64,000 bases of DNA from Patescibacteria group bacterium (GCA_028699085.1 JAQVVF010000003.1:25721-89720); one strand, 5' to 3'; shown: positions 3,177-64,000, counted from the stretch's first letter. Numbers and translations are program-made. Notes: generated from the letters alone by a model not told the origin.

Positions 3177-3194
3177 AAAATTTCAAGAATATAA

Positions 3195-3220
3195 AAACGA
3201 GATATCAAATCTCGTTTTTT
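3195..3220. terminator. Bidirectional rho-independent terminator (AAACGAGAT-atcaa-ATCTCGTTT, flanked by an A-tract and a T-tract)
   Basis: It forms a 9-bp perfect stem with a T8 run downstream and an A5 run upstream. It lies between the converging genes 2889..3176 (+) and 3286..4731 (-). Confidence 0.65.
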
Positions 3221-3285
3221 TTATTCGTGTAATCCCTGCCTGCCGAGAGGCAGGAGTGCCTCATAGGCATTTGTGAGATTAGTAT

Positions 3286-17057: not shown

Positions 17058-17133
17058 AAATACCAAATCTATTGCCAAATTGCTAATCCTATGCTAAAAT
17101 CAAAGAACTAGAATAAATTTTTTAAAATAAACA

Positions 17134-37456: not shown

Positions 37457-40400
37457 TTATACTTTTCTTACGTATCCAGTACCAGCTGGAATTAATTTAC
37501 CAAGAATTACATTTTCTTTCAGGCCCTTAAGTTCATCAACTTTACCTGTGATAGAAGCATCAATCAAGACTCTTGCAGTTTCTTGGAAAGAAGCAGCAGA
37601 TAAGAAGCTATCAGTTGATAATGAAGATTTAGTAATACCTAATAATAATTCGTCAGCCTCTGGCAATTCTTTTCCATCTTTTTTTAATTGATCGCGAACT
37701 GCCAAAAATTTTACTCTATTCATAACATCACCAGCAATAAGATCACTCTTGCCAGCTTTTCTAACTCTCACCCAATTCAACATCTGTCTGATAATCAATT
37801 CAACATGTTTATCATCTACATCCTGACCTTGGCTTGAGTAAATATATTGTACTTCTTTCAAAATATATTTTTGGATTGCTTCACGTCCGCAAGATTTAAA
37901 TAGATTTTGCAAATCCAATGCGCCTTCTGTCAATTGCTGTCCTTTGCTAACCAAATCTTTATTTTTAACCCATAATACAGCATTGTTTGGCAAAATATAT
38001 TCTTTTTCAACATCGCCTTCTTTGACGATTATTAAATTTTGTCCATCAATTTTCACAAAACCAGAAGCTTTTGCTTTAACATCTTTGCCTTTTTCTGTTT
38101 TAATCAATACATCGCCTTTATTAACATCAGTTGCATCTTTAACAACAAGCTTATCATTTGCCCCAAATTGATATAAATCTTTGCTGACATTTGAAGCAAC
38201 TATTCTTAAAATCTTTCTATCTTTTTCTTCTTCAATCGATGCAATACCATCTAATTCGGCAAAAATTGCTGGTTTTTTGATTCCTCTGGCTTCAAATAGT
38301 TCTTCAACTCTAGGCAAACCTTGAATAATATCTCCTTCGGAAGCTACACCACCAGTATGGAAAGTTCTCATAGTCAACTGTGTTCCAGGCTCACCAATTG
38401 ATTGAGCAGCAATAATACCAACTGCCTGTCCTATTGCTACTTTTTCATTTTTACCTAAATCCCAGCCATAACATTTTTGACAGATACCTCTTTCCATTTT
38501 ACATGTTATTACTGAAAAAATTCTAACAGAATCTAAATCTAAACTATCGATTAATTTTCCATATGCTCTTGTAACAATTTCACCTTTTTTAATAACAATT
38601 TTTCCAGACTGATCTTTTATATCAGAAGCTAATGTTCTGCCTAATATTCTATCGCCAATAGTCGTATTCATTTCAGTGCTATCTTTCTTAGTTATTTCAA
38701 GGCCTTTTGTATCACTACATTCTTCTGCTTGAATAATAATATCTTGAGATACATCAATCAATCTTCTTGTTAAATAACCAGCATTAGCAGTACGCAAAGC
38801 TGTATCAGTTAAACCTTTTCTAGCACCGTGAGTAGAAATAAAATATTCCAAAACACCTAAGCCTTCTTTAAAACTATTTTTAACAGGCAACTCAATAGTC
38901 TTACCTGATGGAGCAGCCATTAATCCTCTCATACCCATCATCTGAACAATTTGTGGCCATGAACCTCTAGCGCCAGATTCAACCATTGCGAAAACTGGAC
39001 CAAATTCTTCAACTGTATTTCTTGTTACATCTGTAATTTTATCTTTTACATTTGCCCAAGTTTCAATTACTTTAACATAACGTTCATGATCAGTTAAAAG
39101 TCCTGATTTATATTGTTGCCTAATTTCTTCAATTTTCTTTGTTGCTTCTAGCATCATGCCTGCTTTTTCTTTTGGCAATTTCAAATCATCCATACCCCAA
39201 GAAAGTCCAGATCTAGTCAAATATTCAAAACCAATTTCTTTAATCGCATCAACTAATTTAACAGTTGTTTCTCCACCATGTTTATGCAAACATTCACCGA
39301 TTAATTCTCTTAATGCTTTTTTATCAAAAACACTATTTCTAAAACCAAAATCTTCAGGCAGTACTCTGTTAAAAATGATTCTACCAACACAAGTCTCTGT
39401 TATTTCATTATCAATTCTAACTTTAATTTTTGCTCTGATATCAACTAAATCGTTTTCATAAGCTAATATTGCTTCTTCAGCATCAGAAAAAATCTTTCCT
39501 TCCCCTTTCATTCCAACGCGCATATTAGAAATATAATAGCAACCCAAAACAATGTCTTGAGAAGGGACAGTAATTGGAACACCAGTAGCTGGTTTTAACA
39601 AATTATGTGTTGCAGACATGATTTCTTTAGCTTCCTTTTGCGCCATGGAAGTAAGAGGAACATGAACAGCCATCTGATCGCCATCAAAGTCAGCATTGAA
39701 AGCAGAACATACCATTGGATGAATTTGCAAAGCCTTGCCTTCAATCAAAATTGGTTTGAAAGCTTGAATACCTAATCTATGCAGGGTCGGAGCACGATTT
39801 AACAAGACATATTTATCAGCAATAGTTTCTTCCAAAGCATCCCAAACTTCTGATCTGCCTTCTTCAATTAATTTTCCAGCAGATCTAACATTATGGGCAA
39901 ATTCACTTTTTATTAAGCTATGAATAACAAATGGTTTAAACAATTCCAAGGCCATTGTTTTTGGAATACCACACTCGCCTAATTTCAAATGAGGTCCAAT
40001 AACAATTACTGAACGTCCTGAATAATCAACACGCTTGCCTAAAAGATTCTGTCTGAAACGTCCTTGCTTGCCTTTCAACATATCAGCCAAAGATTTTAAT
40101 AATCTCTTCTGTCCGGTTGAAGCAGCAGTTACCTTGCCAGATCTTGCTGAATTATCTAATAATGCATCGACAGCTTCTTGCAACATTCTTTTTTCATTTC
40201 TACAAATAACTTCTGGTGCATTTAATTCAATCAACCTTTTTAAACGATTATTACGATTGATAACTCTTCTATATAAATCATTTAAATCAGAAGCAGCATA
40301 TCTACCACCATCCAATTGAACCATCGGACGCAAATCTGGAGGAATAACAGGAAGAACAGTCAATATTGTATATTCAGGTCTAATTCCAACCTTAATTAAA

Positions 40401-41281
40401 TTTTTAACTAATTTCAGTCTTCTCTTAATTTTTTTCTTAATTTGAGCTGGCGCGTTGATTACTTCTTTCTCCAAATCAACTGCCATTTTTTCCAAATTAA
40501 TTTCAGCTAAAACTTTTCTTACTGCTTCAGCGCCAATAGAAGCTTTAAAAACATGTCCGTATTTCAAAGATAAATTTCTATACTTCAATTCAGAAATAAC
40601 ACTTAATTTCTTAATATCTTTGACTTCATCTTTTTCAAAGTTAAAAACTTTATTCAATTTTTGTTGTTCTTTTTCTTTTTCTGAATACAAAGCTTTTAAT
40701 CTTTTTTCCGCATCAGCAGAATTTCCTTTTTCGGACTTTTGTTTTACTTTTAATTGCTTTAATTCTGAAGCTAAATTTTTATACTTATCATCGATTGTTC
40801 TTTTCTTGGTCTTAAATTCATCTTCCAATTCATTCAAAGTTTCTACTTTTGCTTTCTCATCAACAGAAGTTATTAAATAACTAGCAAAATAAACAACCTT
40901 TTCCAAACTTTTTGCAGACAAATCCAAAATCAATCCAACTTTAGATGGAACACCTCTAAGAAACCAGATATGAGAAACAGGAGCTGCTAATTCAATGTGG
41001 CCCATTCTTTCACGTCTCACAATTGATCTCGTAACTTCGACACCGCATTTATCGCAGATTATTCCTTTATATCTGATTCTTTTATATTTTCCGCAATAAC
41101 ATTCCCAATCTTTTGTTGGACCAAAAATTCTTTCCGAAAACAGACCATCTTTTTCCGGACGTTGGGTACGATAGTTGATTGTCTCTGGTTTTTTAACTTC
41201 TCCATAAGACCAATCTAAAATTTCATCCGGAGAAGCCAGTTTTAATCTTATCGCATTAAAATCAGTTGTAATATTTGCCAT
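37457..41281 (-). CDS. rpoC: DNA-directed RNA polymerase subunit beta'
   Basis: 1274 aa with zinc-binding cysteines near the N-terminus (CYCGKY...CDKCGVEV) and the NADFDGD catalytic motif. Confidence 0.95.
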   Translation of the reverse strand: MANITTDFNAIRLKLASPDEILDWSYGEVKKPETINYRTQRPEKDGLFSERIFGPTKDWECYCGKYKRIRYKGIICDKCGVEVTRSIVRRERMGHIELAAPVSHIWFLRGVPSKVGLILDLSAKSLEKVVYFASYLITSVDEKAKVETLNELEDEFKTKKRTIDDKYKNLASELKQLKVKQKSEKGNSADAEKRLKALYSEKEKEQQKLNKVFNFEKDEVKDIKKLSVISELKYRNLSLKYGHVFKASIGAEAVRKVLAEINLEKMAVDLEKEVINAPAQIKKKIKRRLKLVKNLIKVGIRPEYTILTVLPVIPPDLRPMVQLDGGRYAASDLNDLYRRVINRNNRLKRLIELNAPEVICRNEKRMLQEAVDALLDNSARSGKVTAASTGQKRLLKSLADMLKGKQGRFRQNLLGKRVDYSGRSVIVIGPHLKLGECGIPKTMALELFKPFVIHSLIKSEFAHNVRSAGKLIEEGRSEVWDALEETIADKYVLLNRAPTLHRLGIQAFKPILIEGKALQIHPMVCSAFNADFDGDQMAVHVPLTSMAQKEAKEIMSATHNLLKPATGVPITVPSQDIVLGCYYISNMRVGMKGEGKIFSDAEEAILAYENDLVDIRAKIKVRIDNEITETCVGRIIFNRVLPEDFGFRNSVFDKKALRELIGECLHKHGGETTVKLVDAIKEIGFEYLTRSGLSWGMDDLKLPKEKAGMMLEATKKIEEIRQQYKSGLLTDHERYVKVIETWANVKDKITDVTRNTVEEFGPVFAMVESGARGSWPQIVQMMGMRGLMAAPSGKTIELPVKNSFKEGLGVLEYFISTHGARKGLTDTALRTANAGYLTRRLIDVSQDIIIQAEECSDTKGLEITKKDSTEMNTTIGDRILGRTLASDIKDQSGKIVIKKGEIVTRAYGKLIDSLDLDSVRIFSVITCKMERGICQKCYGWDLGKNEKVAIGQAVGIIAAQSIGEPGTQLTMRTFHTGGVASEGDIIQGLPRVEELFEARGIKKPAIFAELDGIASIEEEKDRKILRIVASNVSKDLYQFGANDKLVVKDATDVNKGDVLIKTEKGKDVKAKASGFVKIDGQNLIIVKEGDVEKEYILPNNAVLWVKNKDLVSKGQQLTEGALDLQNLFKSCGREAIQKYILKEVQYIYSSQGQDVDDKHVELIIRQMLNWVRVRKAGKSDLIAGDVMNRVKFLAVRDQLKKDGKELPEADELLLGITKSSLSTDSFLSAASFQETARVLIDASITGKVDELKGLKENVILGKLIPAGTGYVRKV

Positions 41282-41432: not shown

Positions 41433-44400
41433 TTATTTCCGTTCGTACTTCTTTTCTTCAGTTTCAAGAATATTTCCAGATTTATCCAAAATTTCAACAT
41501 TCAAAGCTAAGCTTTTTAATTCTTTAACTAAAACACTGAATGATTCTGGAACGTTTGGTTGTCTAATCGTTTCACCTTTAATAATTGCTTCATAAGTCTT
41601 AGAACGTCCAATAACATCATCTGATTTTATTGTTAATAATTCCTGTAGAACATGAGAAGCGCCATAAGCTTCAATTGCCCATACTTCCATTTCACCAAAT
41701 CTTTGTCCACCGAATTGTGCTTTACCGCCTAATGGCTGTTGAGTAACCAAAGAGTACGGTCCGATTGATCTTTGGTGAATCTTGTCTTCAACTAAGTGAT
41801 AAAGTTTCAAGATATACATCACACCAACTGTTGTTTTTTCTGCAAATGGACTGCCTGTTCTGCCATCATAAAGTTGAACTTTGCCATTTTCTGGCCAATT
41901 TGCTCTTTTTAGTTCAGATTTAATTGTTTCTTCTTTTACACCATCCAAAACAGGAGTTGCGACTTTATAGCCTAATAATTTTGCAGCCATGCCCAAGTGT
42001 ACTTCCAAAATCTGGCCTTGATTCATACGAGAAGGCACGCCTAATGGATTCAAAATAATATCAACTGTTCTGCCATCAGGTAAATATGGCATATCTTCTT
42101 GAGGAACAATCTTTGAGATAACACCTTTATTACCATGACGACCAGCCAATTTGTCACCAACTTGGATTTTTCGAAGTTGAGCAACAGAAACCTGAATTGT
42201 TTTTATTACACCAGTTGGCAATTTATCACCTTTTTCTCTAGAAAATATTTTTACATCTACAACCTTGCCATGTTCGCCATGTTGTAGATATAAAGAAGTA
42301 TCTTTTACATCTCTAGCTTTTTCACCAAAAATTGCTCTTAGTAATCTCTCTTCTGCAGTCAATTCAGTCTCACCTTTTGGAGTAATTTTGCCTACTAGAA
42401 TATCAGAAGAAGTAACTTGAGCTCCAACTCTGACAATTCCTTCTTCATCCAAATCTTTTAATTTTTCTTCACCAACATTTGGAATATCGCGAGTTACTAA
42501 CTCTGAACCTAATTTTGTATCACGAACATCAATTGAAAAATCCTCAATATGAATTGAGCTATAAACATCTTCTCGAACAAGTCTATCAGAAATCAACATC
42601 GCATCTTCAAAATTACCACCTTGCCATGCCATAAATGCAACAACAACATTTTTACCTAAAGCTAATTCACCTTTGTCAGTTGAAGATCCATCAGCAATAA
42701 TCTGACCTTTCTTTACTTTTTCACCCATCGACACAATTGGTCTCTGATCAATACAAGTTGAAGTATTTGATCTTAAAAAATTTAATAATTTATATTCTCT
42801 AATATTTTTGTTAGCTTCTAATACCTTTATTCTTTTTCCTGATACTTCAATAATCTCACCATCTTTTTTACAAACAATTACTACGCCAGAATCTTTAGCA
42901 GCTCTTTCTTCACAACCTGTTCCAACGATTGGTGAATCAGGATTAATACAAGGGACAGCCTGACGTTGCATATTTGAACCCATCAAAGCACGATTCGCAT
43001 CATCATGTTCCAAAAACGGAATCAAAGCTGTTGTAATAGAAACAATTTGTTTTGGAGAAATATCCATATATTCAATTTTACCAGTTGCTTCCATTAAAGG
43101 TTCACCTGCAATAATAACTTCCGCTCTTTTACCAGTAAAATATCCCTTTTCATCAATCGGAATTGTAGCTGGAGCTGTTACGTGTTTTTCTTCTTCAATT
43201 GCATCTAAATATTCAATGTCTTCTGTTACTCTTGACCTGATTTGGATAACTTTCAAGCCAGCATTCTTGATTTTGTCAATATCTTTTTTATCAATTAATT
43301 TATCAGCTGGTATGATTGTTTTTCCTTTTTCATCCAAAATTCCTGCTTTATAAGAAATTTCACCAATTGCTTTTTCGGCCTGTTCGATAGGAATCTCTCT
43401 CAAAACCTTTCTATAAGGAGTTTCAATAAAACCATATTCATTAATTCTCGCATAAGAAGAAAGATGGCCAACCAAACCAATGTTTGGACCTTCAGGAGTC
43501 GAAATTGGACAAATTCTACCATAGTGAGTTCTGTGTACATCACGAACATCAAAACCTGCTCTCTCACGAGACAAACCGCCAGGACCCATTGCTGATAGTC
43601 TTCTCTTATGCTCTAACTCGGACAATGGATTTGTCTGATCCATAAATTGAGAAAGTTGAGAAGACATAAAGAATTCTCTGATTGAAGAGATAACTGGTCT
43701 AGCATTAATCAATTGAGCTGGAGTAGAAGTATTAATATCCAAAGTACTCATTCTATCTCTAATAATTCTTTCCATTCTCATTAAACCAACTCTCATCTTA
43801 TTCTGGACTAGTTCACCAATAGCTCTCACTCTTCTATTGCCTAGATGATCAATATCATCAGGATTACCTTGATTAATATTTAATTTAATCAATTCCTTGA
43901 TAACATTAACAAGATCTTCTTTTCTTAAAACTCTATTTTGCTTGTTAATAACAATTTTTTCACCCAATCTTTTGTTCATTTTAAAACGTCCGACTTTGCC
44001 AAAATCGTATCTTTCAAAATTAAAAAACATTGCTTCAATCAATGATCTTGCATTATCTGCCGTAGCTAAATCACCAGGTCTGATTCTTTTATAAACTTCA
44101 ATAAAACCTTCAGCTTGATTTTTTGCAATGTCTTTTTCTAATGTATTTTTAATGAATTTTCTATCAGGCAAAGTATCAACATCTTTGAATTGAGCTAAAA
44201 TTTCTTCGTCAGAAGAAAAACCAAAAGCCCTTAACAATGATGTTACAGGTACTTTTCTCTTACGATCAATTTTTGCATAAATAACACTTTTTGAATCTGT
44301 TTCAATTTCAATCCAAGCGCCACGATTAGGAATAATTTTTGCTCCAAATAATTTTTCGCCTTTTGTTAATTCAGCAGTAAAGAAAACACCAGGAGATCTG

Positions 44401-44798
44401 ATTAATTGAGAAACAACTACTCTTTCAACACCATTAATAATAAATGTTCCTCGATCAGTCATTAATGGAAATTCACCTAAATATACTTCTTGTTCTTTTA
44501 TTTCCCCAGTTTGCTTGTTAACTAATTGGACCTTACAACGAACAGAAGCCTCATAAGTTGCATTTCTAGATTTTGCTGCTACTTCATCAACTTTCGGTTC
44601 GTCAATAATATAATCAACAAAACTTAATTCTAGATTTTTTTCTGTAAAATCCTTGATTGGTGAGATTTCATCAAACAATTCTTTCAAGCCTTCTTTAAAA
44701 AACCAATCATAAGAATCAGTTTGAACTCTGATTAAATCAGGAAGTTCAATAACATCATGCAATTTAGTGAAAAATTTTCTTTTTTGCTTTTGAGGCAT
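41433..44798 (-). CDS. rpoB: DNA-directed RNA polymerase subunit beta. The start is taken at [10 protein letters not shown]..., that is Met19 of the track ORF.
   Basis: Canonical beta-subunit motifs run throughout the protein. The 18-codon 5' extension in the ORF track ([18 protein letters not shown]) looks like untranslated leader. Confidence 0.95.
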
Positions 44799-45099
44799 AA
44801 GTTTAAAAATATGAAAAAAATAAAAATATAAAAATATTTCTCTATATATCAACCTTTAAGACAAATGCCTGAGTTATCCACAGCTCTAGGAGATACAAAA
44901 AAATAGCCAAAAAATGACTTATTTGGCTTATTTAAAGTCTTTTATAAATATCACGCCCGAGGTAATTAACCTCTGCTTTGAATATCATACTTCCAGTATA
45001 AGCGTTTTATTTAAAAAGTCAAGCTTTTTTTAATTACAAACACTATTATGGCTAACATTAAGCAAAATATAACATATATGCTCTTTTTATCCACAACGC

Positions 45100-46359
45100 T
45101 TATCCTTCAATTCCAGTAATTATATCTCGTAATTTTAATAATCCTTCATTTTCGTCTTTACCAGACTCTTTAGTAGATAGCTCTCGATTCATTTTTCGTC
45201 CTATCTTCTCTCTTTGTTTTTCTAATTTTCTTTCTTTATGAGATGTTGCCAAAAAATGCTCTACTTCCTCGCTAACAACCATTACTGCTCCAGCAATTCT
45301 TGACAAATTTGATTCAGTCATTTTTTTTGATCTTGCTAAAATATTTGCCAATTTACCTCCAAGTTTTTCCAAACCAGATAATTTTCTAAGTTCGTCAGGC
45401 TTATAACCAAGCTCGCTTGCAATTCCACCAATCTTTTTTGCAATTTCATCAATTCTTTTAAATGACTTTTCCGATATCTTTTTACTTGCAGAAAATTGAC
45501 TTACAGCAATAGCATCAACCTTTGCTTCAAAATGCTTAAAAGCCGGAATTTCTGCTGTTTCAGTTCTCTCAGATAAAAATTTTGCCTTAGATTCCTCTGT
45601 AGTTGGCGGATCCCAATCATCATAAGGTGCTTTTTCAAAAGGAACATGAGTTATTCCTTCTTGTTTCCTTGTTTCTTGCCTAGCTAGATCTTCCGTTACT
45701 GCTTTCCACATTGCTTCTACATCAGAAGCTTCGCCTTCATCTTCATGACCATCTTGCAACCAAATCGGCAATTCAGTTTTTGTCTGTTCTACTTCTGCTC
45801 TCGATTTAGCTACCCATCTACCATTTTTATATTCTGCTGGAATTACCTCTATAATATCTATAATATCTTTATCCTCAAGAGGAGACCATTCTTCTTCCAA
45901 TGCAGGAGCTTCTTGAACTTTTTGCCCATAATAAGCTTCTTTAGCAGTTGGCACTTCTTCTGGATATATCTCTTTATGTGTCGGCAATTCTTCATGAAAA
46001 AATTGCTCGCGATCAGCAGCGTCTAATTTTTTATTCCACTCCTGCCAAACCCTTTTTTCTTCAGCTGTCTTTGGCATTCTCGGCAAATCTTCTTTTTTAA
46101 GAGGCAAAATATCCTCAAAATTAATCAAATTGCCTTCTTCAAAAATTTGTTCCGGTTCAACTTCCATTTCTGGCTCTTCAACTGTTTTTATATTTTCCTC
46201 ATGCAATTCTCTCTCTTTATTTTTTAAAAAATTTTTTTCTTCATCTGTTGCTTCACCAGATTGAACTTCAGTAATTTCATGAGTCCTTTTAACACCAGTT
46301 TTTTGCCGACTCAGACTCTCTTCATCTGCAAAATTATTACTCGCTTCTCTTTGTGCCAT
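45100..46359 (-). CDS. Hypothetical, highly acidic protein, 419 aa (paralog P3)
   Basis: It is E/D-rich. It shares the segments HEITEVQSGEATDEEKNFL and GYKPDELRKLSGLEKLGG with the 46839..47933 product. Confidence 0.55.
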   Translation of the reverse strand: MAQREASNNFADEESLSRQKTGVKRTHEITEVQSGEATDEEKNFLKNKERELHEENIKTVEEPEMEVEPEQIFEEGNLINFEDILPLKKEDLPRMPKTAEEKRVWQEWNKKLDAADREQFFHEELPTHKEIYPEEVPTAKEAYYGQKVQEAPALEEEWSPLEDKDIIDIIEVIPAEYKNGRWVAKSRAEVEQTKTELPIWLQDGHEDEGEASDVEAMWKAVTEDLARQETRKQEGITHVPFEKAPYDDWDPPTTEESKAKFLSERTETAEIPAFKHFEAKVDAIAVSQFSASKKISEKSFKRIDEIAKKIGGIASELGYKPDELRKLSGLEKLGGKLANILARSKKMTESNLSRIAGAVMVVSEEVEHFLATSHKERKLEKQREKIGRKMNRELSTKESGKDENEGLLKLRDIITGIEG

Positions 46360-46415
46360 ATTTTTAAAAAATTAATTTTTAGTTCTATCAAGACATTATA
46401 TACAATTCCTCAATA

Positions 46416-46805
46416 TTATTTAATCTGTTCTTTTATTCTTCTTTTTTTATCTTCTTCAACCATTTTTACCGCATCTTGAAAAACACTATCAAGCCTTCCA
46501 TCTAACTTTTCAATTCCTTTTTGATATTCATCATAAGCATATTTCATTCTCTTCAACATTCTAAAATAAATCAAATCCAAAACTAATTTGTCTTGATGAA
46601 TTTCAGTACCCAAATTTTCTTTTGTTTTTTCTTTATCTTTAATTCCTTTTTGCACTTTTTTGATATGATTATCAATTGCCTTGATAATATTATCGCGCAC
46701 TTTTTTACTTAGACCTTCAGTTTCTATCTTTTTGATCAAGCTATTTTTTTCACGAGTTGTTAAATCAGATTGTTTGATTAATTCGATTGCTTTTTTTGTT
46801 TCCAT
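46416..46805 (-). CDS. Hypothetical small charged protein (P2), probably coiled-coil, 129 aa
   Basis: The ORF lies between the two acidic paralogs and is K/E-rich. Confidence 0.45.
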   Translation of the reverse strand: METKKAIELIKQSDLTTREKNSLIKKIETEGLSKKVRDNIIKAIDNHIKKVQKGIKDKEKTKENLGTEIHQDKLVLDLIYFRMLKRMKYAYDEYQKGIEKLDGRLDSVFQDAVKMVEEDKKRRIKEQIK

Positions 46806-46838
46806 ATTTTTATTATTTAAAATATTTTTTAAAAAAAA

Positions 46839-47933
46839 TTATTCGCTAGGACTTACTTCAAATTTAGCTCTCAATTGTTCAAAACGCTCTCTTTGTTTTA
46901 ATAATTTTTCATATTCTTTTCTTTCACTTTTTTCTTTTCTTTTTTCTTCCCATGCTTTAATTTTTTCTTTTGTTCTTTTTATTTCTGCTGGAAAATCTTT
47001 TGCTATTTCTTCATAAGCTTTTTGAGCCTCAGTAGAAATATCTCTTAAACCATCGTCCATTTTTTTTATCGCCAATTTTGGTAAATTTTCTCCAGCTGCA
47101 ACAGTACCATATCCCAAATCACGCATCGTTCTTCCAAACATTGATAAACCATTTTTTATTCGCCCACTAAACAAACCCTTTAGCAATCCTCCAGCATTAC
47201 TCAAACCTTTCTTAGCATATTTCGTTAACTTTTCTACTGTTTGTCTACCTTGTTCAACATTCCAAATCTTTGCATCAGCTACTGTTTGAGCATCAAAATT
47301 TTTCTCAACATCAGACACTAAAAGATTCGTATCTTCATCAAATGACGTATCAGTATTCCCAATCAGATTATCAACCGTTTGACTAAAGGAATCTTCAGGC
47401 CAATATTTTGCAAAAAGATTTTCAACCTCTGGATTATCATATACTTCTTCCTCTGCAGTCTTCAAAACTTCTTCCACTTCCGCAGTTTTTACACCACCAC
47501 GTCCTTCATTTTTTCTAATCTCTTCAGCAATTTGTGCCAAGATGTCTTCTCCTTCCATTTCTAATGGAGAAGGAGGCGCTTCCACTTCTTCAAATTTAGC
47601 TCTTTCTAAAAAAGCTTTTTCTTCTTCTGTTGCTTCACCCTCTTCAACTTCAGTAACTTTATGCTCTTTTTTTACACCTGTAGCACTTGATTTTTTCTTG
47701 CCATTCTCATCAACTTCTTGGATATCTTTATCAGCGACTTCTAACTCTTTAACAGTTGATGCTTCTTTTACTGTAGGTGCGGCTTCTTCTGCCACAGTTG
47801 GTACATCAACCTCTGCTATTGTTGGCGCATCTTCAACAACAACGCCTTTTCTTTTTCTAGTTCTCTTTCCAGATTTTGCTTGTTCTTTATAAAACTCTTC
47901 TTGATCTGGAACATCAATATTTCTTCTTGCCAT
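46839..47933 (-). CDS. Hypothetical, highly acidic protein, 364 aa (paralog P1), with a basic N-terminal patch (KSGKRTRKRKG)
   Basis: It shares HKVTEVEEGEATEEEKAFL and other segments with the 45100..46359 product. Confidence 0.55.
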   Translation of the reverse strand: MARRNIDVPDQEEFYKEQAKSGKRTRKRKGVVVEDAPTIAEVDVPTVAEEAAPTVKEASTVKELEVADKDIQEVDENGKKKSSATGVKKEHKVTEVEEGEATEEEKAFLERAKFEEVEAPPSPLEMEGEDILAQIAEEIRKNEGRGGVKTAEVEEVLKTAEEEVYDNPEVENLFAKYWPEDSFSQTVDNLIGNTDTSFDEDTNLLVSDVEKNFDAQTVADAKIWNVEQGRQTVEKLTKYAKKGLSNAGGLLKGLFSGRIKNGLSMFGRTMRDLGYGTVAAGENLPKLAIKKMDDGLRDISTEAQKAYEEIAKDFPAEIKRTKEKIKAWEEKRKEKSERKEYEKLLKQRERFEQLRAKFEVSPSE

Positions 47934-48001
47934 AAATTTTAATTTAGTTTTTTACAAAAAATATCCTTATTTAAATATAACACAAAATAATATTTTCTGC
48001 A

Positions 48002-50874: not shown

Positions 50875-52857
50875 TTACTTCACGCCAATCGTAAACAAAG
50901 TATCTTTCTGTTTAAAATATCTAATATCAGTCGCAAAAGTATTCTTCTTGGTATTTTGTTTCGTATTAGTAATCAACTTTAACCTATTAGCATTATACCA
51001 AGTTTTTGTGCCTTTGTCATAAAATTTCAACCACAACTTTTTCTCTGCCTGTTTTTTAGTTAGCTTCTTCAAATCAGAATTTTTTAATCTTAATCTGTTT
51101 GATAATTTTTGAGTGTAATAGAATTTTACTTTGACTCTGAACATCTTTTTTTGATATTTTTCTACTTTGTTTTTGTATGACTTCGATGTTTCATCGCTAC
51201 AAGCTGGATTATAATAGCAAGTTACATAATTGCTTTCTGCCTTTATTAATTTGCTTCTCGATTTTTTATGATAGCTATATAAATTCGTTTTAATTTTCCA
51301 ATATCTTTTTATTGCTTGCTTTTTTACATTTGCATAGTTTTTTGCATATTTTTTGTATCTGTATGTTTGCATCCAATAATTCTCTGAATTATTAGGCAGT
51401 TTTTTCCAGATATATGATAAATCATAGTTAACTACCTCAACATCTTCCTGCGGAATTACTTTGTCTGATGAATTATCATCAGTTGAAGTTAAAGTAGTTG
51501 ACGATACATTTCCAGCCCAATCTGAGACTCTGAAATATACAGTTTTAACTGTTGAGCCTGAAGCATTATGAATACCAGTCAAAGTTGCTGAAGTCAATGC
51601 TGTTCCTGCTGTCAAAGGATCGCAAGTATTGCTTTCATCAATACAATAATATTTAGCTCCACCCATTTTTGCATAATCAGATGCTGACAGGTTGTAGCTG
51701 AATTGATCGCCTGATTTGCCAGTTAATGCGACTGTTGCTGTTGGAACAACGCTATCAAGTAAAACGAAATTAGTATTCTGGCTAGCAGTATTGTAATAAG
51801 CAATAAAATCGTTATTATTGCCATGAGCAATTGAATTCAGAGTTGAATTCTCCATTCCGACTATTGAAGAAATAATTCCTGAAGCGCTATTATATGCATA
51901 ACCTAAATAATTATTGCCAAAATAATAGTGTGAAAGATGTTCATAATTTTGGCTATCCAAGGCAATTGATGGAGAAAAACCAGGATATCCTCCAGTAGAT
52001 GATACATAGGCAGAAGATGTAAACCCTGAAAGATTACCACTTGCTACTTGCAAAGAAGAACTACTAACATCAACATATGTGTATGCAATCTTAACAACAT
52101 CATCACTTCCTACTGAAATTGAATTTCCGTAATAATTTCCCCCTGCAGCTGTAACAATACCAGACAATGTGCCATTTGCATAATTTACAGCATATTTTGT
52201 AGATAAATTAGTTCTGTCAGAATAAGAAACATGAATATTATCCTGCAAATCAACAGCTGATGATATATCATAAATATTACCTGCCAAAAGTGTTCCAACA
52301 ACCCAATTAGAACCAGTCCAATGAGCATATTTCAATCGATTATCAGTATCGCCTGCATGATACTGATAATAAATATGTGGAGTACCATCAGATCTCAATA
52401 CCATTGAAGTCTGCAAACCAGTATCTCCAGTTGTATCAATTGCCTCCTGCCCAGCCCACAAATCATTACTCTTTTTCACATATCTTAAATCACCATTATA
52501 ATAATAACTAATATGAACATCATCGTTGCTCTTATTAATAGCGATTGAACAATATTTACCATATCCAGAACCAATTTCTTTAAATAAAGAATCAGTTGCC
52601 CAAAAACTTCCATTCCAATAGATATGGCGCAAACCAGAAATAGTAGTACCACCAACTTCTTCATAATAAGCACAAATATGCGGATAATCATTACTATCAA
52701 GTGTTATAGAACGATCTCCTTTATAATTTCCCCCATAACTCATAATATTTCTAAAAAATACTTTTCCGCTTTCATTTGTTTGCGTATAAGCTTGCGCAAA
52801 TTGAAAACACAATAAACTAAAAAATACGACTAAAAAACTTGTTAATGCTTTCTTCAT
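50875..52857 (-). CDS. Secreted protein with an N-terminal beta-propeller-like region and the C-terminal lysine-rich module (family member C)
   Basis: The signal peptide is MKKALTSFLVVFFSLLCFQFAQA. The C-terminus reads WKKLPNNSENYWMQTYRYKKYAKNY...KRYWKIKTNL...FRVKVKFYYTQK. Confidence 0.65.
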   Translation of the reverse strand: MKKALTSFLVVFFSLLCFQFAQAYTQTNESGKVFFRNIMSYGGNYKGDRSITLDSNDYPHICAYYEEVGGTTISGLRHIYWNGSFWATDSLFKEIGSGYGKYCSIAINKSNDDVHISYYYNGDLRYVKKSNDLWAGQEAIDTTGDTGLQTSMVLRSDGTPHIYYQYHAGDTDNRLKYAHWTGSNWVVGTLLAGNIYDISSAVDLQDNIHVSYSDRTNLSTKYAVNYANGTLSGIVTAAGGNYYGNSISVGSDDVVKIAYTYVDVSSSSLQVASGNLSGFTSSAYVSSTGGYPGFSPSIALDSQNYEHLSHYYFGNNYLGYAYNSASGIISSIVGMENSTLNSIAHGNNNDFIAYYNTASQNTNFVLLDSVVPTATVALTGKSGDQFSYNLSASDYAKMGGAKYYCIDESNTCDPLTAGTALTSATLTGIHNASGSTVKTVYFRVSDWAGNVSSTTLTSTDDNSSDKVIPQEDVEVVNYDLSYIWKKLPNNSENYWMQTYRYKKYAKNYANVKKQAIKRYWKIKTNLYSYHKKSRSKLIKAESNYVTCYYNPACSDETSKSYKNKVEKYQKKMFRVKVKFYYTQKLSNRLRLKNSDLKKLTKKQAEKKLWLKFYDKGTKTWYNANRLKLITNTKQNTKKNTFATDIRYFKQKDTLFTIGVK

Positions 52858-55309: not shown

Positions 55310-57112
55310 TTAAACTGCACTAATTGCAAACATATTATTTTTCCAATCAAAATTTTCAATCCAAATTCTAAATTTCTTTTCCTTTCTTAAATATACTGCT
55401 GGCATTGTCTGCCAAGACCTACTATTATAATTATAAAATTTTAATTTCAAATCTTTTTTCTTCAATCCATGCAATAATTTATTTCTAAACTTAAAAACCA
55501 TTTTAATTTTAAATTTTCTATCACTTTTTATTTTGTTTAAATTTGATTCTATTCGCCAATAGCCCTTTAATGTTTTAGACTTTTCTAAACCACTCGGTTT
55601 TTTTGCAATTCTCGTTATTTTAAACCAATAATCAGTTGGCTTGCTAGGTAATTTTTTGAATTTAAAATCCAATAATTTTCCTTGTAAATTAAGATTTTTT
55701 AATCCTTTTCTTAAATCAAATTTTTTATCATTATAAATGATATTATAATTTTCCGTTCTGACAATTTCCTGATTTCCCAAATTATCAATTGAAAAGAACT
55801 TCAATACTTTATCATTAAAAATTCGAAACGGACTTGAATATTTTGTTGAACTAATAGTTGGAGTTGAACCATCAAGAGTATAATAAATCCCAGAAATTCC
55901 ATCACTATCAGTTGCAGTTAAAACAATCTTTTTATATTTTTTATAATCTCCTCCAGCAGGTGTTGCTATGGTTCTTGGTTCAAGAAAATTTTCTGAAATT
56001 TTATCCCACAATTCAGTATATGTCCCATCATATCCCAAGGCCCAAATCCCAATGCCTAACAAGTTATTATCATTCACTAAATCATACTTGTATTGCAAAC
56101 TTTCGGCATCTTCATACCAAGTCTGCTGAAAACTGCCATATTTATAATACGGCGTTTTCGAATCATTGTCCCAAATTCTCGAATAGTTTAATAATGCTAA
56201 CCTATTTTCAGCATAAGTTTTTGCCTCACCATCAGCAGTTGTATTTGCTGGAATAATATCCGCTGTAACTGGCCAATCATAGCCATAATATGGCACTCCT
56301 AAAATTAATTTTTGTCGATTAGTATTTGTTAAATTAAAATAAGTATCCAAAGTACTTTTCACATTATAATTGCCCCAAGTGCTACTATCATCATATGGCG
56401 AAATCGGCCCAGCTTCTGGACCTGTTTGCCAATGATAATCATAAGCCATGATCATTAATCCATCTGAATTTTGTGCCAAGGAATTTTCATCAAAAGAATT
56501 TGACCAATCAACTGCTGGCACATCAATTGCAATATGATAAGAAGAATTGGAAGCTTTAAAAGCATTATTTAAATCAGTAATAAAAGTAGTCAAATTTTCT
56601 TTCATCGAAGAATCAACATTTTCAAAATCAATATTTACTCCATCAGCAGATGTGTTTTTAACTTCATTCAATAAATTATTAATTAAATTATTTCTGTTTG
56701 TCGCGCTTGATAATAAAGTTGAAAGATCTGATGCATTAAAATTTTGTGCTGTTAAAACTACCTTAACGCCATTTTGATGAGCCAAATCCAACAACGTATT
56801 ATTCGGCCAACCATGTTTATCACCTAGACTTCCATTGCCATTAACTTCAATCGAAAAATAAGCAACATGAGTCAATAAATCCCATTGAAAATTAGTATAC
56901 GCATCTCCCATCCAATATGGATAAAAACCATAAACAACCTTAGATACGCTTGGCGTTGAACTTATGCTTCCATGGCTAACAATTCCAACATTATCTTGCA
57001 CTTTGTAGTCTCTATTTTTTTCCAATTCGATTTGATGGATACTTTTTCCGAAAACAAAATTTCCAGAAAACAGAAATGAACAAACAATTAATAGATAAAA
57101 TATTTTTTTCAT
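55310..57112 (-). CDS. Secreted glycoside hydrolase family 18-like protein with the C-terminal lysine-rich module (family member D)
   Basis: There is a signal peptide. GH18 motifs are VVYGFYPYW, DGVNIDFE (the DxxDxDxE catalytic motif with the Glu present) and MAYDYHW. The C-terminus reads FKKLPSKPTDYWFKITRIAKKPSGL...LKGYWRIESNL...FKIKMVFKF. Confidence 0.7.
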   Translation of the reverse strand: MKKIFYLLIVCSFLFSGNFVFGKSIHQIELEKNRDYKVQDNVGIVSHGSISSTPSVSKVVYGFYPYWMGDAYTNFQWDLLTHVAYFSIEVNGNGSLGDKHGWPNNTLLDLAHQNGVKVVLTAQNFNASDLSTLLSSATNRNNLINNLLNEVKNTSADGVNIDFENVDSSMKENLTTFITDLNNAFKASNSSYHIAIDVPAVDWSNSFDENSLAQNSDGLMIMAYDYHWQTGPEAGPISPYDDSSTWGNYNVKSTLDTYFNLTNTNRQKLILGVPYYGYDWPVTADIIPANTTADGEAKTYAENRLALLNYSRIWDNDSKTPYYKYGSFQQTWYEDAESLQYKYDLVNDNNLLGIGIWALGYDGTYTELWDKISENFLEPRTIATPAGGDYKKYKKIVLTATDSDGISGIYYTLDGSTPTISSTKYSSPFRIFNDKVLKFFSIDNLGNQEIVRTENYNIIYNDKKFDLRKGLKNLNLQGKLLDFKFKKLPSKPTDYWFKITRIAKKPSGLEKSKTLKGYWRIESNLNKIKSDRKFKIKMVFKFRNKLLHGLKKKDLKLKFYNYNSRSWQTMPAVYLRKEKKFRIWIENFDWKNNMFAISAV

Positions 57113-57122: not shown

Positions 57123-59090
57123 TTATTTTTCCGCTATCACAAACCAATTTTTCATCTTCGAAAACAATCTAATATCTGATACTAATAGATTCTTATTTTT
57201 TTTCAAAATCGTTTTATCTTTCTTTTTCCAATAATTAACATAGCTTTCTTGTTTTGAATATAAGACTAAATTCTTTTCTTTTATTCCAGCTTTTTTAATT
57301 TTCTTGCTTTTGTATGGAAAATAAATTTTTACTCGATATTTTCCTGCTGTTTTTTTGTACAAATTTGTCCTCAATTTCCAAAAATATTTTAATGATTTTT
57401 CATTCTTTAAAAAATTAGGCTTTTTTTTCACTTTATCAATTTGCATCCACATCTTTGTTGGATTGTCTGGCAAATCTAAAAATTTTATTCCAATGCCAGT
57501 TCTGCTCGAAACATATTTTGTTCCCAAAGAATCATCATTGAATCTTATATAATTATCAAAGGTTTTCACTGCAATTTTAGAAAATAATCCTACACTTGCT
57601 TCCGGCTCAATTTCCGTATATTTCCTTTCTCCAAAAGTTTTAACTAACCAATCACTATCAGAAGTTCCAGTTGAAAAACCAACTAATGCGAAATCATCAT
57701 TCTCATTAAAATCTATTCCAAAATACGTTTCATTATTACTTTCATTTTCCAGTAATGAATAAAGCAAATTACCATTGCTATCATATTTTCTAAGTGATAG
57801 ATCATTGCCACTTGCAACTTTAGAATCACCAACTAAAATTACTTGATTCAAGGAATTTATTGCCAAACCATACAAATAATCATTTCCTAATTCACTATCA
57901 AATAATCTATCCCATACTAAATTTCCTTCAGAATCAACTTTCCTTAACAACCAATTATTATCAGTCTCATTATAATATCCGCCTAAATAAATATTATTAT
58001 TTGAATCAACTTCTACTGCTCTAAAATAATTTGCTGTTCCTTTTTCATAACTCGTATTCCAATCTTCCACCAAATTATTAGTATATTTAATGGTATAAAA
58101 TTCTAAGCTCTCATCAGTTGCTCTATTTCCAGTAGCAATAATATTATTTTCTGAATCAACTGCTAAATCATACAAAATATCATCACCTAAAGCTGAATCG
58201 TAATCTTGATCAGTAATAATATTTCCATCTGCATCGTATTTTCTTAGATACCAATTTTTAGTTCCGCTTGTCCTATAGCCTCCAGCAATAACATTATCAT
58301 CGTTATCGACAATTACTGCATTTGCTTCATCATTTCCTCCAGAATCATAAGTCTTGCTCCACAAAATATTGCCATCACTATCGTATTTTCTAATATACCA
58401 GTCTTTATCACCAAGCGCTTCAGAATAACCAATTGCAATAATATTATCAAAACTATCAATTGCTAAATCTTTAACCTCGCCATTATCAAAATCAAAAGTT
58501 TCTGACCAAATTGATTCTCCATCTTCACTATATTTTTCTAATAACCAATCATAACCACCAGTTTCGTTTGCATAATTTCCCGCCACAACCAAATCGTTAG
58601 TTGACAAAAATTTTACGCTTTTTGCTTGATCATGACCGTTTTCACTATCATAATTTTTAACAAAAAAATTAACTGGCTCTAATTCCATAGTTTGATCAAA
58701 AGAACTAGCAGATTGCGCTTCTGAATTTCCAAAATATAGATAAATGTTTTTAATACTTTCAGCCAAAAGTTCCGGAACTTCTACCCAAATCGTTGCCAAA
58801 TTTTCTTCATAATCAAAACTTTTCAACCAAAAATCAAGCGAGGTTGAATCATTTGAATCAACGAATCTAATATCTGATCCATCACTTTTTATTCTTGACC
58901 AAAAATCAGTCTGTTCTTCATCTAAAACTATTTTTATTTGATGATTGCTTAGGTTTTCTGAATTCAAAGTATTATCCAATTCAATTGGCAAGCGATAATC
59001 ATAATCATTACTATACCAAGCCTTGGCATCTGAATTAAAAATAACAAAATAACCAAATAACAAAATTATGCCAATAAAAAATCGTTTCAT
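57123..59090 (-). CDS. Secreted beta-propeller repeat protein (SBBP-like repeats) with the C-terminal lysine-rich module (family member E)
   Basis: There is a signal peptide. It carries at least six repeats of the form DWY(I/L)RKYDSDGNxxW...D.G.D.A..V..D.DNN(I/V)I..GY. The C-terminus reads LDLPDNPTKMWMQIDKVKKKPNFL...LKYFWKLRTNL...YRVKIYFPY. Confidence 0.65.
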   Translation of the reverse strand: MKRFFIGIILLFGYFVIFNSDAKAWYSNDYDYRLPIELDNTLNSENLSNHQIKIVLDEEQTDFWSRIKSDGSDIRFVDSNDSTSLDFWLKSFDYEENLATIWVEVPELLAESIKNIYLYFGNSEAQSASSFDQTMELEPVNFFVKNYDSENGHDQAKSVKFLSTNDLVVAGNYANETGGYDWLLEKYSEDGESIWSETFDFDNGEVKDLAIDSFDNIIAIGYSEALGDKDWYIRKYDSDGNILWSKTYDSGGNDEANAVIVDNDDNVIAGGYRTSGTKNWYLRKYDADGNIITDQDYDSALGDDILYDLAVDSENNIIATGNRATDESLEFYTIKYTNNLVEDWNTSYEKGTANYFRAVEVDSNNNIYLGGYYNETDNNWLLRKVDSEGNLVWDRLFDSELGNDYLYGLAINSLNQVILVGDSKVASGNDLSLRKYDSNGNLLYSLLENESNNETYFGIDFNENDDFALVGFSTGTSDSDWLVKTFGERKYTEIEPEASVGLFSKIAVKTFDNYIRFNDDSLGTKYVSSRTGIGIKFLDLPDNPTKMWMQIDKVKKKPNFLKNEKSLKYFWKLRTNLYKKTAGKYRVKIYFPYKSKKIKKAGIKEKNLVLYSKQESYVNYWKKKDKTILKKNKNLLVSDIRLFSKMKNWFVIAEK

Positions 59091-62042: not shown

Positions 62043-64000
62043 TTATTTCACGATTGCATTTTCCAAAGCATTTTTTACTACATCATCCATTGTTTTTACA
62101 AAAACAATTTTTAAATCTTTCTGAATATTCTTTGGAATATCTGCCAAATTCGGTCTGTTTTCTTCTGGCAACAATACAGTTTTTACTCCAGCTTGTTTTG
62201 CAGCCAAAACTTTTTCTTTTACTCCGCCAATTGGCAAAACCTTTCCTCTCAAAGTTACCTCTCCAGTCATAGCCACATCTTTTTTGATCTTTCGACCTGA
62301 CAAAACTGAAACTAAGACAGTTGCCATTGCTGTTCCTGCTGAAGGGCCATCTTTTGGAATACCGCCAGCTGGAACATGAATGTGAATATCATCATTTTTG
62401 TAAAACTTTTCTTCAACACCTAATTGGCTTGCAATTGATCTCGCATAAGAATAAGCAGCTTCAGCTGATTCTTTCATTACTTTGCCTAATTGACCTGTTA
62501 AACGTAATTCTCCTTTGCCAGGCATGCGAGACGCTTCAATATGCAAAATATCACCACCAGCAGGAGTCCAGGCAAGTCCCGTTACAACTCCAACTTCATC
62601 TTTCTTTTCAGTTTTTTCTTGAGTAAATGTTGCAGGCCCTAAATATTTATTCAAATCAGCAATCGTCACGTTATTATCACCTTTACCGCCTGATGCAACA
62701 GACTTTGCCATTTTTCTACAAATTGCTGCAATTTGTCTTTCTAAATTTCTCACACCAGCTTCCTTTACATATTCAGAAATAATATGTCTAATTGCAGGAT
62801 CGGAAAAAAGACATTGTTCTTTTTTTAAACCATTTTCTTTTAATTGTCTTGGAATCAAATATTTCTTAGTAATATGAAATTTTTCTTCTTCTGTATAGCC
62901 TAAAAATTCAATTATTTCCATTCTATCTCGTAATGCCGGAGGAATTGTATCCAAAACATTTGCTGTTGTAATAAACATTACATCTGACAAATCAAATGGC
63001 ACTGCCAAATAATTATCCACAAATTCTTTGTTTTGAGCTGGATCTAATGCTTCAAGCAAAGCTGAAGACGGATCGCCTCGATAATCATTTCCCACCTTAT
63101 CAATTTCATCAAGCATAAAAACTGGATTTCTAGATTTTACGGTATTTATACCTTGAATAATTCTGCCTGGCATTGCTCCGACATAAGTCCTACGATGACC
63201 TCGTATTTCTGCCTCATCTCTAATTCCACCAAGGCTCATTCTATGAAATTCACGACCTAAAGATTTTGCAATCGATTTTCCAATTGAAGTTTTTCCAACT
63301 CCAGGGGGTCCAAAAAAACAAAGAATCGGACCTTGAATCTGGTTTGTTAATTTCCTAACAGATAAATATTCCAAGATTCTTTCTTTAACTTTTTCCAAAC
63401 CATAATGATCATTATCCAAAATCTTCTTTGCTTTTTTGACATCAACTTTGCATTCGCTTCTTTTGTTCCATGGTAAATTAATCATCCAATCAATATAAGT
63501 CCTAATATAAGAGATTTCTGGAGAAAAAGATGGCATACCTTTCATTCTATTGAATTCTTTCATTACTTCTTCTTCTGTTTTCTTTGGCATTCCCACTTCT
63601 TTTATTTTCTTTTCCAAGGAAACAGTTTCATCTTCTCCGCCACCTAATTCACCTAATTCTTTCTGAATTGTCTTCATTTTTTCTCTCAAATACATTTCTT
63701 TTTGCATTTTTTCCAATTCTTTTCCAGTATTTTCTTCTAGCTTTTGTGCCATTGCAAAAACCTTTGTCTGTTTTCCCAAAAGCTCATTTAGAGTTTTTAA
63801 TTTTTCTTTAACATCTTCTATTTCTAATAATTTCTGCTTTTCTGAAACTTTTAAATCCAAATTAGAGACAATTAAATCACATAATTGCCACGGATCTTTC
63901 ATATTCAAAATAACCATCATTACATCTAAAGGCACATTAGCTCCCATAGAAACAACAGATTTGAATTGATTAATTACTGTATACATCAATGCTGTAATTT
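62043..64000 (-). CDS. lon: ATP-dependent Lon protease; the 5' end lies beyond the window
   Basis: The AAA+ Walker A is GPPGVGKTSIGKSIA. The Lon S16 peptidase domain has the catalytic Ser in PKDGPSAGTAMATVL. The ORF remains open to the window edge, so the gene is N-terminally truncated here. Confidence 0.9.
   Translation of the reverse strand, partial: ITALMYTVINQFKSVVSMGANVPLDVMMVILNMKDPWQLCDLIVSNLDLKVSEKQKLLEIEDVKEKLKTLNELLGKQTKVFAMAQKLEENTGKELEKMQKEMYLREKMKTIQKELGELGGGEDETVSLEKKIKEVGMPKKTEEEVMKEFNRMKGMPSFSPEISYIRTYIDWMINLPWNKRSECKVDVKKAKKILDNDHYGLEKVKERILEYLSVRKLTNQIQGPILCFFGPPGVGKTSIGKSIAKSLGREFHRMSLGGIRDEAEIRGHRRTYVGAMPGRIIQGINTVKSRNPVFMLDEIDKVGNDYRGDPSSALLEALDPAQNKEFVDNYLAVPFDLSDVMFITTANVLDTIPPALRDRMEIIEFLGYTEEEKFHITKKYLIPRQLKENGLKKEQCLFSDPAIRHIISEYVKEAGVRNLERQIAAICRKMAKSVASGGKGDNNVTIADLNKYLGPATFTQEKTEKKDEVGVVTGLAWTPAGGDILHIEASRMPGKGELRLTGQLGKVMKESAEAAYSYARSIASQLGVEEKFYKNDDIHIHVPAGGIPKDGPSAGTAMATVLVSVLSGRKIKKDVAMTGEVTLRGKVLPIGGVKEKVLAAKQAGVKTVLLPEENRPNLADIPKNIQKDLKIVFVKTMDDVVKNALENAIVK

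Follow-up and report, generated by a model that had tools for sequence, protein, structure and literature searches.

An orphan, Patescibacteria-restricted cassette of a small helical protein and bipolar partner proteins adjoining rpoB-rpoC

The genes examined here, P1, P2 and P3, lie upstream of rpoB and rpoC in DNA of a Patescibacteria group bacterium (GCA_028699085.1, JAQVVF010000003.1:25721-89720); the window, as used below, is this whole stretch of 64,000 nucleotides (nt). P2 encodes a small basic protein predicted to be helical, and P1 and P3 encode longer, bipolar proteins. The three genes are genuine and evolve under purifying selection; they represent an orphan cassette that is restricted to the Patescibacteria and found in about a dozen lineages. 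The cassette is new in the sense that it matches nothing; a new mechanism is not claimed. The window is AT-rich (G+C about 31%), and its exact matches in public data are labelled as a 'Patescibacteria group bacterium' metagenome-assembled genome (MAG).

Orthologues of all three genes were found in the same order in two MAGs, L001 (GCA_964574655.1, labelled Ca. (Candidatus) Saccharibacteria) and L002 (Joint Genome Institute, JGI, 3300037810), and on the short contigs L005, L007 and L008. The expectation that relatives would keep these genes in one order and adjoining rpoB was thereby borne out at orthologous loci. The amino acid identities between the window and L001 or L002, respectively, are 97% and 92% for P2, 94% and 97% for RpoB, 91% and 95% for RpoC, 91% and 84% for the DUF212 protein, 83% and 81% for the Mur ligase, 81% and 76% for TsaB, 61% and 39% for P3, and 48% and 54% for P1. 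The ratio of non-synonymous to synonymous substitution rates (dN/dS) is 0.03-0.07 in P2, 0.03-0.05 in RpoB and 0.10-0.21 in neighbouring housekeeping genes; the corresponding figures are 0.38-0.40 in P1 and 0.32-0.64 in P3, below 1 in every comparison. In codon terms, P2 of the window differs from that of L001 by 28 synonymous and 4 non-synonymous changes, and from that of L002 by 28 and 10. P2 is tightly constrained within this subclade, while P1 and P3 evolve several-fold faster and keep their layout, with intact frames of P1 or P3 type, 332-419 amino acids (aa) long, in every lineage.

Outside the subclade the cassette takes a simpler form. We counted as a partner-plus-P2 cassette any P2-like gene of 112-133 aa that lies directly downstream of, and co-oriented with, a longer partner having a basic helical C-terminal domain. 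Such cassettes occur in the window, L001, L002, L005, L006, L007, L010, L016, L012, L014, L015 (twice) and L019, the gap between partner and P2 being short throughout (1-69 nt), and a P2-like partner is present in every version seen. The gene orders are P1-type partner, P2 and rpoB in L006 and L016, and TsaB, P3-type partner, P2, rpoB, rpoC and FtsK in L010; the L018 contig begins at P2 and continues into rpoB. The assignment to type rests on profile hidden Markov models (HMMs), that of P1 matching the partners of L016 (E 1.9e-18) and L006 (E 3.2e-11) and that of P3 matching the sole partner in L010 (E 1.8e-16). Away from rpoB, two tandem pairs stand in L015 (419+116 aa and 451+133 aa), a non-acidic 246-aa partner with a 113-aa protein in L012, a pair of 116 aa and 121 aa in L014, and a partner that runs off its contig, of at least 260 aa, with a 132-aa protein in L019. 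Since relatives hold a single partner, of P1 type or of P3 type, or else the pair in two tandem copies, the pair is the conserved unit, and the trio is, as judged from these gene orders, a partner-gene duplication inside a two-gene cassette, specific to the lineage of the window's subclade. The original prediction of a conserved trio thus holds in that narrow subclade; elsewhere, in the contexts of L006, L016, L010 and L015, the unit is the pair. For the most distant partners, homology to P1 is no more than suggested by hhalign, with scores of 26.6 and 23.5 for two of them against shuffle maxima of 19.2 and 18.4 and no significance for another two. In the two pairs of L015 (positions 975-4481 of a Parcubacteria MAG contig) both long partners are acidic, and the 451-aa one repeats the motif DKDPVFD(E/Q)G(I/V)DI(G/E).

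The cassette is rare. Among 5.8 billion proteins the homologues of P2 fall into seven clusters, each with a length of exactly 129 aa. One homologue was present in one of 185,579 GTDB species genomes and one on a single JGI metagenome contig, each scan returning just an already known locus. An exhaustive HMM search of 1.84 billion proteins gave ten small representatives of 112-133 aa, that of P2 itself included. Where the source of a P2 relative is named, it is a Patescibacteria or Parcubacteria MAG. The statement of the original prediction that none of the three proteins belongs to a nameable family was upheld in every collection searched. Scans of P1, P2 and P3 with Pfam and NCBIfam gave no match above noise, and the PHROGs and PADLOC models for phage and anti-phage defence proteins gave none at E<=0.01; Pfam likewise returned nothing for the 10 distant small relatives, the 10 partner proteins and the 16 members of the P2 family. 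Profile searches of the PDB with the P2 family and with the joint C-terminal domain of P1 and P3 yielded helical and coiled-coil noise only, uS15 and uL29 appearing at that level, and Foldseek found nothing at E<1 for the P2 model in the PDB. Literature searches gave no description of such a cassette in bacteria of the Candidate Phyla Radiation (CPR).

P1 and P3 had been proposed to be paralogues, and significant similarity was obtained by BLASTP over a shared segment, by the P3 HMM and by hhalign of the C-terminal domains. The shared segment TGVKxxHxxTEVxxGEATxEEKxFL, here called module A, is identical at 17 of 25 positions (BLASTP E 2e-7) and is the sole BLASTP-significant segment of the window pair. 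It was among the colinear segments that the original prediction had listed, though with the peptide labels exchanged: KRTHEITEV... belongs to P3 and KKEHKVTEV... to P1. A further listed pair, GYKPDELRKLSGLEKLGG and GYGTVAAGENLPKLAIKK, lies within a stretch whose homology shows in profile comparison, and the pair MEVEPEQIFEEG and LEMEGEDILAQI is absent from the BLASTP output. Over the N-terminal module the P3 HMM matches P1 of L007 (2e-5) and of L002 (5e-4), and the extended module A of L007 P1, ...EEKAFLRKKTEEMYEEGVKTVEEE, corresponds to ...EEKNFLKNKERELHEENIKTVEEPE in P3. The last 150 residues of the two families align by hhalign with a score of 32.2 (E 1.3e-4), against a mean of 11.7 and a maximum of 18.5 in 200 column shuffles; after members from L006, L016 and L010 were added, the probability was 90.4% (E 1.4e-6, 101 columns). 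The joint alignment of this domain has a common KGF.G...FG....LGY core and a terminal ..ELR.. helix. In addition, the motif PT..E is enriched in both families, with 11 occurrences against 0.5 expected in one and 14 against 0.9 in the other. Because of module A, the homology of the C-domains and the common PT..E enrichment, P1 and P3 are by sequence colinear, distant paralogues.

Both proteins had been described as hyper-acidic, with about 30% Asp plus Glu. The measured values are 22.3% in P1 and 22.4% in P3, and the description is overstated for the proteins as a whole, which are bipolar, an acidic N-part being followed by a basic C-domain. The N-parts contain 26-27% Asp plus Glu (net charge -28 in P1 and -34 in P3), and single 40-residue blocks reach 30-33%. 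Over the C-terminal 150 residues the net charge turns positive, with +10 in P1 and +7 in P3. This distribution of charge recurs in 12 of 12 P1- and P3-type proteins, at -10 to -41 for the N-part and +6 to +21 for the C-terminal 150 aa.

In P1, the basic patch KSGKRTRKRKG, correctly pointed out before, occupies residues 20-30 and is followed by three [AV]PT[IV]xE motifs (37-58), by module A (TGVKKEHKVTEVEEGEATEEEKAFL, 85-109) and by an acidic-aromatic stretch with conserved F174 and W178; the helical C-domain is net basic and contains a Gly-rich helix, cationic and amphipathic, as well as the motif SFG..LGYG..ENLP, and its long terminal helix has RFEQLRAKF at the end. P3 begins with module A (residues 21-45, running on to KTVEEPE), continues with the Trp-rich acidic motifs VWQEWNKKL, LPIWLQDGHEDEG and YDDWDPP and two PTxKE motifs (126-130 and 137-141), and closes with a net-basic, helical C-domain (IGGIASELGYK, GLEKLGG and IAGAVM) that ends in LLKLRDIITG. 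In alignments, P3 orthologues keep the Trp-rich acidic motifs invariant as VW.EW, LP.W.QEGHEDE and YDDWEPP, with W105, W108, P126-T127, D248 and P251-P252 precisely conserved, and P1 orthologues keep an (E/D)FD..FD..W motif. The best-conserved motif of the partners is the cationic amphipathic Gly-rich helix, for example KKGFRGFMGGLRKRFTRF, with a hydrophobic moment of 0.5-0.6 and a charge of +5 to +7; it spans P1, P3 and the distant partners, and the segments KKGFRGFMGGLRKRFTRF and KGKKRFKGLFGKIGSQLK both carry +7. The AlphaFold2 model of P1 has a low mean confidence (predicted local distance difference test, pLDDT, 49.8). It is non-helical over residues 1-100 and places helices at 226-255, 258-275 and 283-359, of which only 283-359 is moderately confident (pLDDT 65-87). 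A reading of the sequences of P1, P2 and P3 gave neither a transmembrane segment nor a signal peptide.

P2 contains 26% Lys plus Arg and 19% Asp plus Glu (net +9), in agreement with its earlier description as rich in Lys and Glu. Its designation as a coiled-coil type of protein agrees likewise with the AlphaFold2 model, built from a seven-sequence alignment with a mean pLDDT of 84, in which two short helices (residues 2-11 and 17-30) precede one of 95 residues (34-128). Between residues 87 and 116, approximately, our own reading of the sequence finds hydrophobic residues at the 3-4 spacing of a coiled coil.

The reading that we tentatively prefer, as a possibility to which other readings are set below, is that P2 and its partner form a complex with a basic anchor and acidic, client-binding arms, encoded by this orphan cassette of the Patescibacteria. 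The long C-terminal helices of P1 and P3 would pack on the long helix of P2 to give a heteromeric helical complex, which the basic C-domains would tether to nucleic acid or membrane as an anionic surface, and the polyanionic, motif-bearing arms would engage basic client proteins. Because the position beside rpoBC persists, one may speculate that the likeliest clients would be RNA polymerase or other nucleic-acid-binding proteins, in a manner akin to the acidic tails of delta or SutA; this is the weakest step of the model. The thoughts of a DNA mimic and of a chaperone in the original prediction are likewise speculative. Its extension to a Patescibacteria-specific accessory module of RNA polymerase is rather doubtful. 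P2 would then be a coiled-coil hub on the enzyme or on DNA, one or two polyanionic arms with PTxxE and acidic-aromatic motifs would mimic nucleic acid or recruit basic factors, the role would be that of delta, omega or sigma region 1.1, and the expression of rpoBC would be set by a leaderless-peptide attenuator.

The persistence of the position is seen in eight lineages, in which P2 is followed by rpoB at a distance of 257-510 nt while P2 identity falls to 40%. Several observations nevertheless weigh against clients in transcription. The adjacency to rpoB is confined to one shallow clade, in which RpoB is 84-98% identical and the whole neighbourhood of TsaB, cassette, rpoB, rpoC and FtsK is syntenic, so that the linkage may simply be inherited. 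Four more distant cassettes (L012, L014, L015 and L019) adjoin unrelated genes and not rpoB, and the cassette and rpoB appear to have separate promoters; the conserved promoter and the terminator-like hairpin between P3 and rpoB mean that co-transcription with rpoBC is not implied. Between the window and L010 the identities are 84% for RpoB, 79% for RpoC, 59% for TsaB and 40% for P2. At this depth P2 outpaces RpoB, RpoC and TsaB in divergence, which is not expected of a core polymerase subunit. Similarity to known polymerase-binding proteins was not found, and the PDB profile search, followed to E=10, contained no bacterial RNA polymerase subunit, sigma factor or stalk protein. The N-parts of P1 and P3 are probably disordered, as the low-confidence P1 model and the composition suggest. 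The tie between cassette and transcription is positional only, and a role of the cassette with RNA polymerase is possible but unsupported.

The Patescibacteria, or CPR, account for a large share of bacterial diversity and have tiny genomes with many genes of unknown function. A cassette retained next to rpoBC can reasonably be suspected of a housekeeping function specific to its lineage. Between close relatives P2 is as constrained as RpoB, and an unusual layout of acidic arm and basic anchor is kept by the partners. If the complex were a polymerase or nucleoid accessory, it would be a new type of bacterial transcription factor.

The main rival to a client-binding complex is a peripheral-membrane or cytoskeletal coiled-coil scaffold, acting in the envelope, division or attachment and unrelated to transcription; we regard it as conceivable and on balance unlikely. 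The amphipathic Gly-rich helix would lie on an anionic membrane, P2 and the terminal helices would build a lattice, the acidic arms would form a repulsive or recruiting brush, and the adjacency to rpoB would be an accident of ancestry. Such a scaffold would fit the cationic amphipathic character of KKGFRGFMGGLRKRFTRF and KGKKRFKGLFGKIGSQLK, which represent the most conserved motif of the partners, the long helices of P2 and P1, the distant cassettes away from rpoB, the seemingly separate promoters, and the presence of a Mur ligase and FtsK among the neighbours. It is opposed by the lack of transmembrane segments and signal peptides and by the finding that Pfam shows no homology to DivIVA, SepF, PspA/Vipp1, phasins or other membrane-scaffold families. 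Moreover, cationic amphipathic helices bind nucleic acids equally readily, and the contexts of the distant cassettes are not consistently envelope-related. Less probable again is a general polyanionic chaperone, buffer or stress protein, like hydrophilins, late embryogenesis abundant (LEA) proteins or dehydrins, by which the partner-P2 complex would serve basic proteins or nucleic acids with no specific target. This would suit a tiny episymbiotic cell, and it would account for an acidic composition and short motifs that are kept despite fast sequence change and for contexts that vary among the distant cassettes. The non-acidic L012 partner, rich in Ala, Gly and Lys, has a very weak LEA_4 match (E 0.047), which is far below the family cut-off and at noise level; the low dN/dS of P2 and the aromatic motifs of P3 argue for specific binding partners instead.

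It is highly improbable that extreme divergence hides the membership of these proteins in a known family, such as L10, L7/L12, the delta or omega subunit of RNA polymerase, or a protein like sigma region 4. The genes rplJ-rplL, for L10 and the acidic L7/L12, normally precede rpoB, and the P2 profile matches a protein with seven Sigma70_r4 repeats. This protein, P0019, is encoded on a 3-kb ENA metagenome contig and has an unusual architecture of 589 aa with seven tandem repeats (Pfam E 3.8e-57); the match, weak for each single repeat, covers P2 positions 8-43 with an E of 1.4e-7 when summed over the 7 repeats. For P1, P2, P3 and 16 P2 relatives no match was found to Ribosomal_L12, L10, RpoE/HARE-HTH, RNA_pol_Rpb6 or Sigma70_r4 at E up to 1-10, nor did the PDB profile search mentioned above point to these families. 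As L7/L12, P2 was rejected because PF00542 and PF16320 matched neither P2 (E<=1) nor the 16 members (E<=10) and because it is predicted as one long helix, unlike the alpha/beta C-terminal domain of L12. The lead to the L12 N-terminal domain came to an hhalign probability of 3.9% and a score of 16.4, with three sequences of that domain; this is on a par with shuffled controls of other hhalign comparisons, which score 11-13, with maxima of 16-22. As a Sigma-70 region 4 or LuxR helix-turn-helix (HTH; PF04545, PF00196), the P2 N-terminus was rejected on the missing Pfam match, an hhalign probability of 10.8% for the sigma-4 repeat and the continuous helix 34-128. As the delta subunit RpoE, P1 and P3 were rejected on the missing HARE-HTH match in Pfam and NCBIfam and the N-terminal place of their acidic part. 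Least credible of all is that P1 and P3 are fast-evolving low-complexity reading frames, spurious or decaying, so that only P2 matters. They are only 39-61% identical where RpoB is 94-97% identical, their dN/dS reaches 0.64 and their homologues are very few. Against this stand the intact frames in every lineage, dN/dS below 1 throughout, many invariant positions and motifs, the conserved charge layout, and a partner gene beside P2 in every context seen, the distant ones included. For P2 the idea of a non-functional, fast-evolving reading frame is refuted, and for P1 and P3 it is unlikely.

Perhaps more testable than the cassette is what precedes rpoB, namely a conserved promoter, an 18-codon open reading frame (ORF) and a terminator-like element (Table 1). 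The element TGTGTTATATT upstream of P1 appears, from its sequence, to be the cassette's own promoter; its counterparts, picked out by eye, are TTTGTTATAAT in L001, TGTGCTATACT in L002 and TATGGTATAAT in L010. The sigma-70-type promoter in the spacer between P3 and rpoB was recovered in 8 of 8 lineages (window, L001, L002, L005, L006, L010/L011, L016 and L018), with TTGAC and TATAMT invariant in those aligned. The leader ORF keeps its length and frame in all eight, according to translations read by hand, and its ATG follows the -10 element so closely that the transcript may be leaderless. A 5' hairpin, in which the AUG region is paired, overlaps this ORF, and 4 of the 23 predicted pairs of the whole rpoB leader show compensatory changes. 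The terminator-like hairpin had been passed over by a first hairpin scan on account of its loop of more than 8 nt. A search of the window against Rfam had no match at the gathering thresholds, and a cut-off of E<=10 for the rpoB leader brought up no credible one. This leader could control rpoBC as a leaderless leader-peptide attenuator or in the form of a small RNA, and its arrangement is suggestive of attenuation that couples the synthesis of RNA polymerase to translation.

Perfect matches to the DnaA-box consensus number four in the window against 0.6 expected, and two of them lie in the 301-nt spacer between P3 and rpoB, bracketing the rpoB promoter and leader. Of 7 lineages aligned, 6 have the box after the P3 stop codon in register, as TGTGGATAA, and in L005 it lies slightly further downstream. 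No replication origin is evident in the window, as the cumulative GC skew declines nearly steadily along it.

ORF calling returned the three minus-strand frames with exactly the coordinates and lengths first reported, in the same orientation as rpoB and rpoC. The gap of 250 nt given earlier between the cassette and rpoB is to be corrected, as it measures 301 nt to the conserved ATG and 248 nt only to the TTG of the longest ORF. An obvious Shine-Dalgarno sequence was found for none of the three genes, their upstream regions being AAAATATG-like. The spacing between rpoB and rpoC is about 150 nt in the window and L001; in L002 a 119-aa SET-domain gene (16726-17085) stands between them, and this gene is missing from the window and L001. 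On the 5' side of P1 are TsaB, a divergent DUF212 gene and the Mur ligase, and FtsK belongs to the neighbourhood of the clade. Neither a second copy of P1, P2 or P3 nor an rplL-like ORF was found within the window. The most acidic ORF of the window (27% Asp plus Glu) resembles, by eye, ribosomal protein bS6 with a long acidic C-terminal extension rich in Lys and Glu; it is matched by none of the P1, P2 and P3 HMMs and is unrelated to the cassette. Three neighbours further upstream are likely surface or secreted proteins. One, of 660 aa, has a signal-peptide-like N-terminus, a very Lys-rich C-terminal third and no Pfam match, and the others are a GH18 chitinase-like protein with CHB_HEX_C and Fn3_assoc domains and a DUF2341 protein. 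They agree with the earlier remark that this genome encodes basic surface proteins.

Table 1. Positions of the cassette, the rpoB leader and other features, counted from the first nucleotide of the window.
Feature	Position	Strand	Remarks
P1	46839..47933	-	ORF of 364 aa
P2	46416..46805	-	ORF of 129 aa
P3	45100..46359	-	ORF of 419 aa, paralogue of P1
rpoB	41433..44798	-	1121 aa, counted from the ATG at 44798 conserved in orthologues
rpoC	37457-41281	-	3' of rpoB
Inferred cassette promoter, extended -10-like TGTGTTATATT	47974..47984	-	in the 68-nt TsaB-P1 spacer, about 40 nt before the P1 ATG
Sigma-70-type promoter: TTGACT, 16-nt spacer, TATACT	44995..45022	-	P3-rpoB spacer, not of the cassette
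18-codon leader ORF MIFKAEVNYLGRDIYKRL, then stop	44932..44988	-	ATG 7 nt past the -10 element
Terminator-like hairpin: AGCCAAA, 10-nt loop, TTTGGCT, then 7 T	44897..44928	-	3 nt past the stop of the leader ORF
Perfect DnaA-box consensus TTATCCACA	45087..45095	+	directly after the P3 stop codon
DnaA-box consensus copy	44874-44882	+	
DnaA-box consensus copy	5755-5763		
DnaA-box consensus copy	63013-63021		
Most acidic ORF	25684-26229	-	181 aa
Upstream neighbour	50875-52857	-	likely surface or secreted
Upstream neighbour	55310-57112	-	likely surface or secreted
Upstream neighbour	57123-59090	-	likely surface or secreted

The cassette can be compared with several known systems. It occupies the genomic position usual for rplJ-rplL, P2 with its 129 aa has about the size of L7/L12, and the P2 N-terminus superficially resembles the two-helix N-terminal domain of L12; in contrast to L7/L12, P2 is net basic and is predicted to form one long helix, with no alpha/beta C-terminal domain. 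The P2 motif SDLTTREKNSLIKKIETEGL resembles the first helix of Sigma-70 region 4 (PF04545; LTxREkxVLxxRyGL), but the third predicted helix of P2 extends over 95 residues in place of a helix-turn-helix. In alpha-synuclein, HMGB1 and the K-segments of dehydrins, too, a part that is cationic and amphipathic or binds nucleic acid is linked to one that is polyanionic and disordered. This is an analogy only; those proteins are eukaryotic, have no sequence relationship to the cassette, and none of them comes with a P2-like partner.

The delta subunit (RpoE) of RNA polymerase in the Firmicutes likewise consists of a structured domain and a long polyanionic disordered region, the latter acting on RNA polymerase as a nucleic-acid mimic. 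P1 and P3 differ from delta in that their acidic region is N-terminal and not C-terminal, in being 2-3 times larger, and in always occurring with a separate small helical protein. SutA of Pseudomonas aeruginosa is described as a small protein that binds RNA polymerase and is acidic and intrinsically disordered; its disordered acidic tail is proposed to be the means by which it modulates transcription (bioRxiv 10.1101/423384). By that description, P1 and P3 would share with SutA the character of an acidic, largely disordered protein, and would differ from the small SutA in carrying a basic helical C-domain and in coming together with P2.

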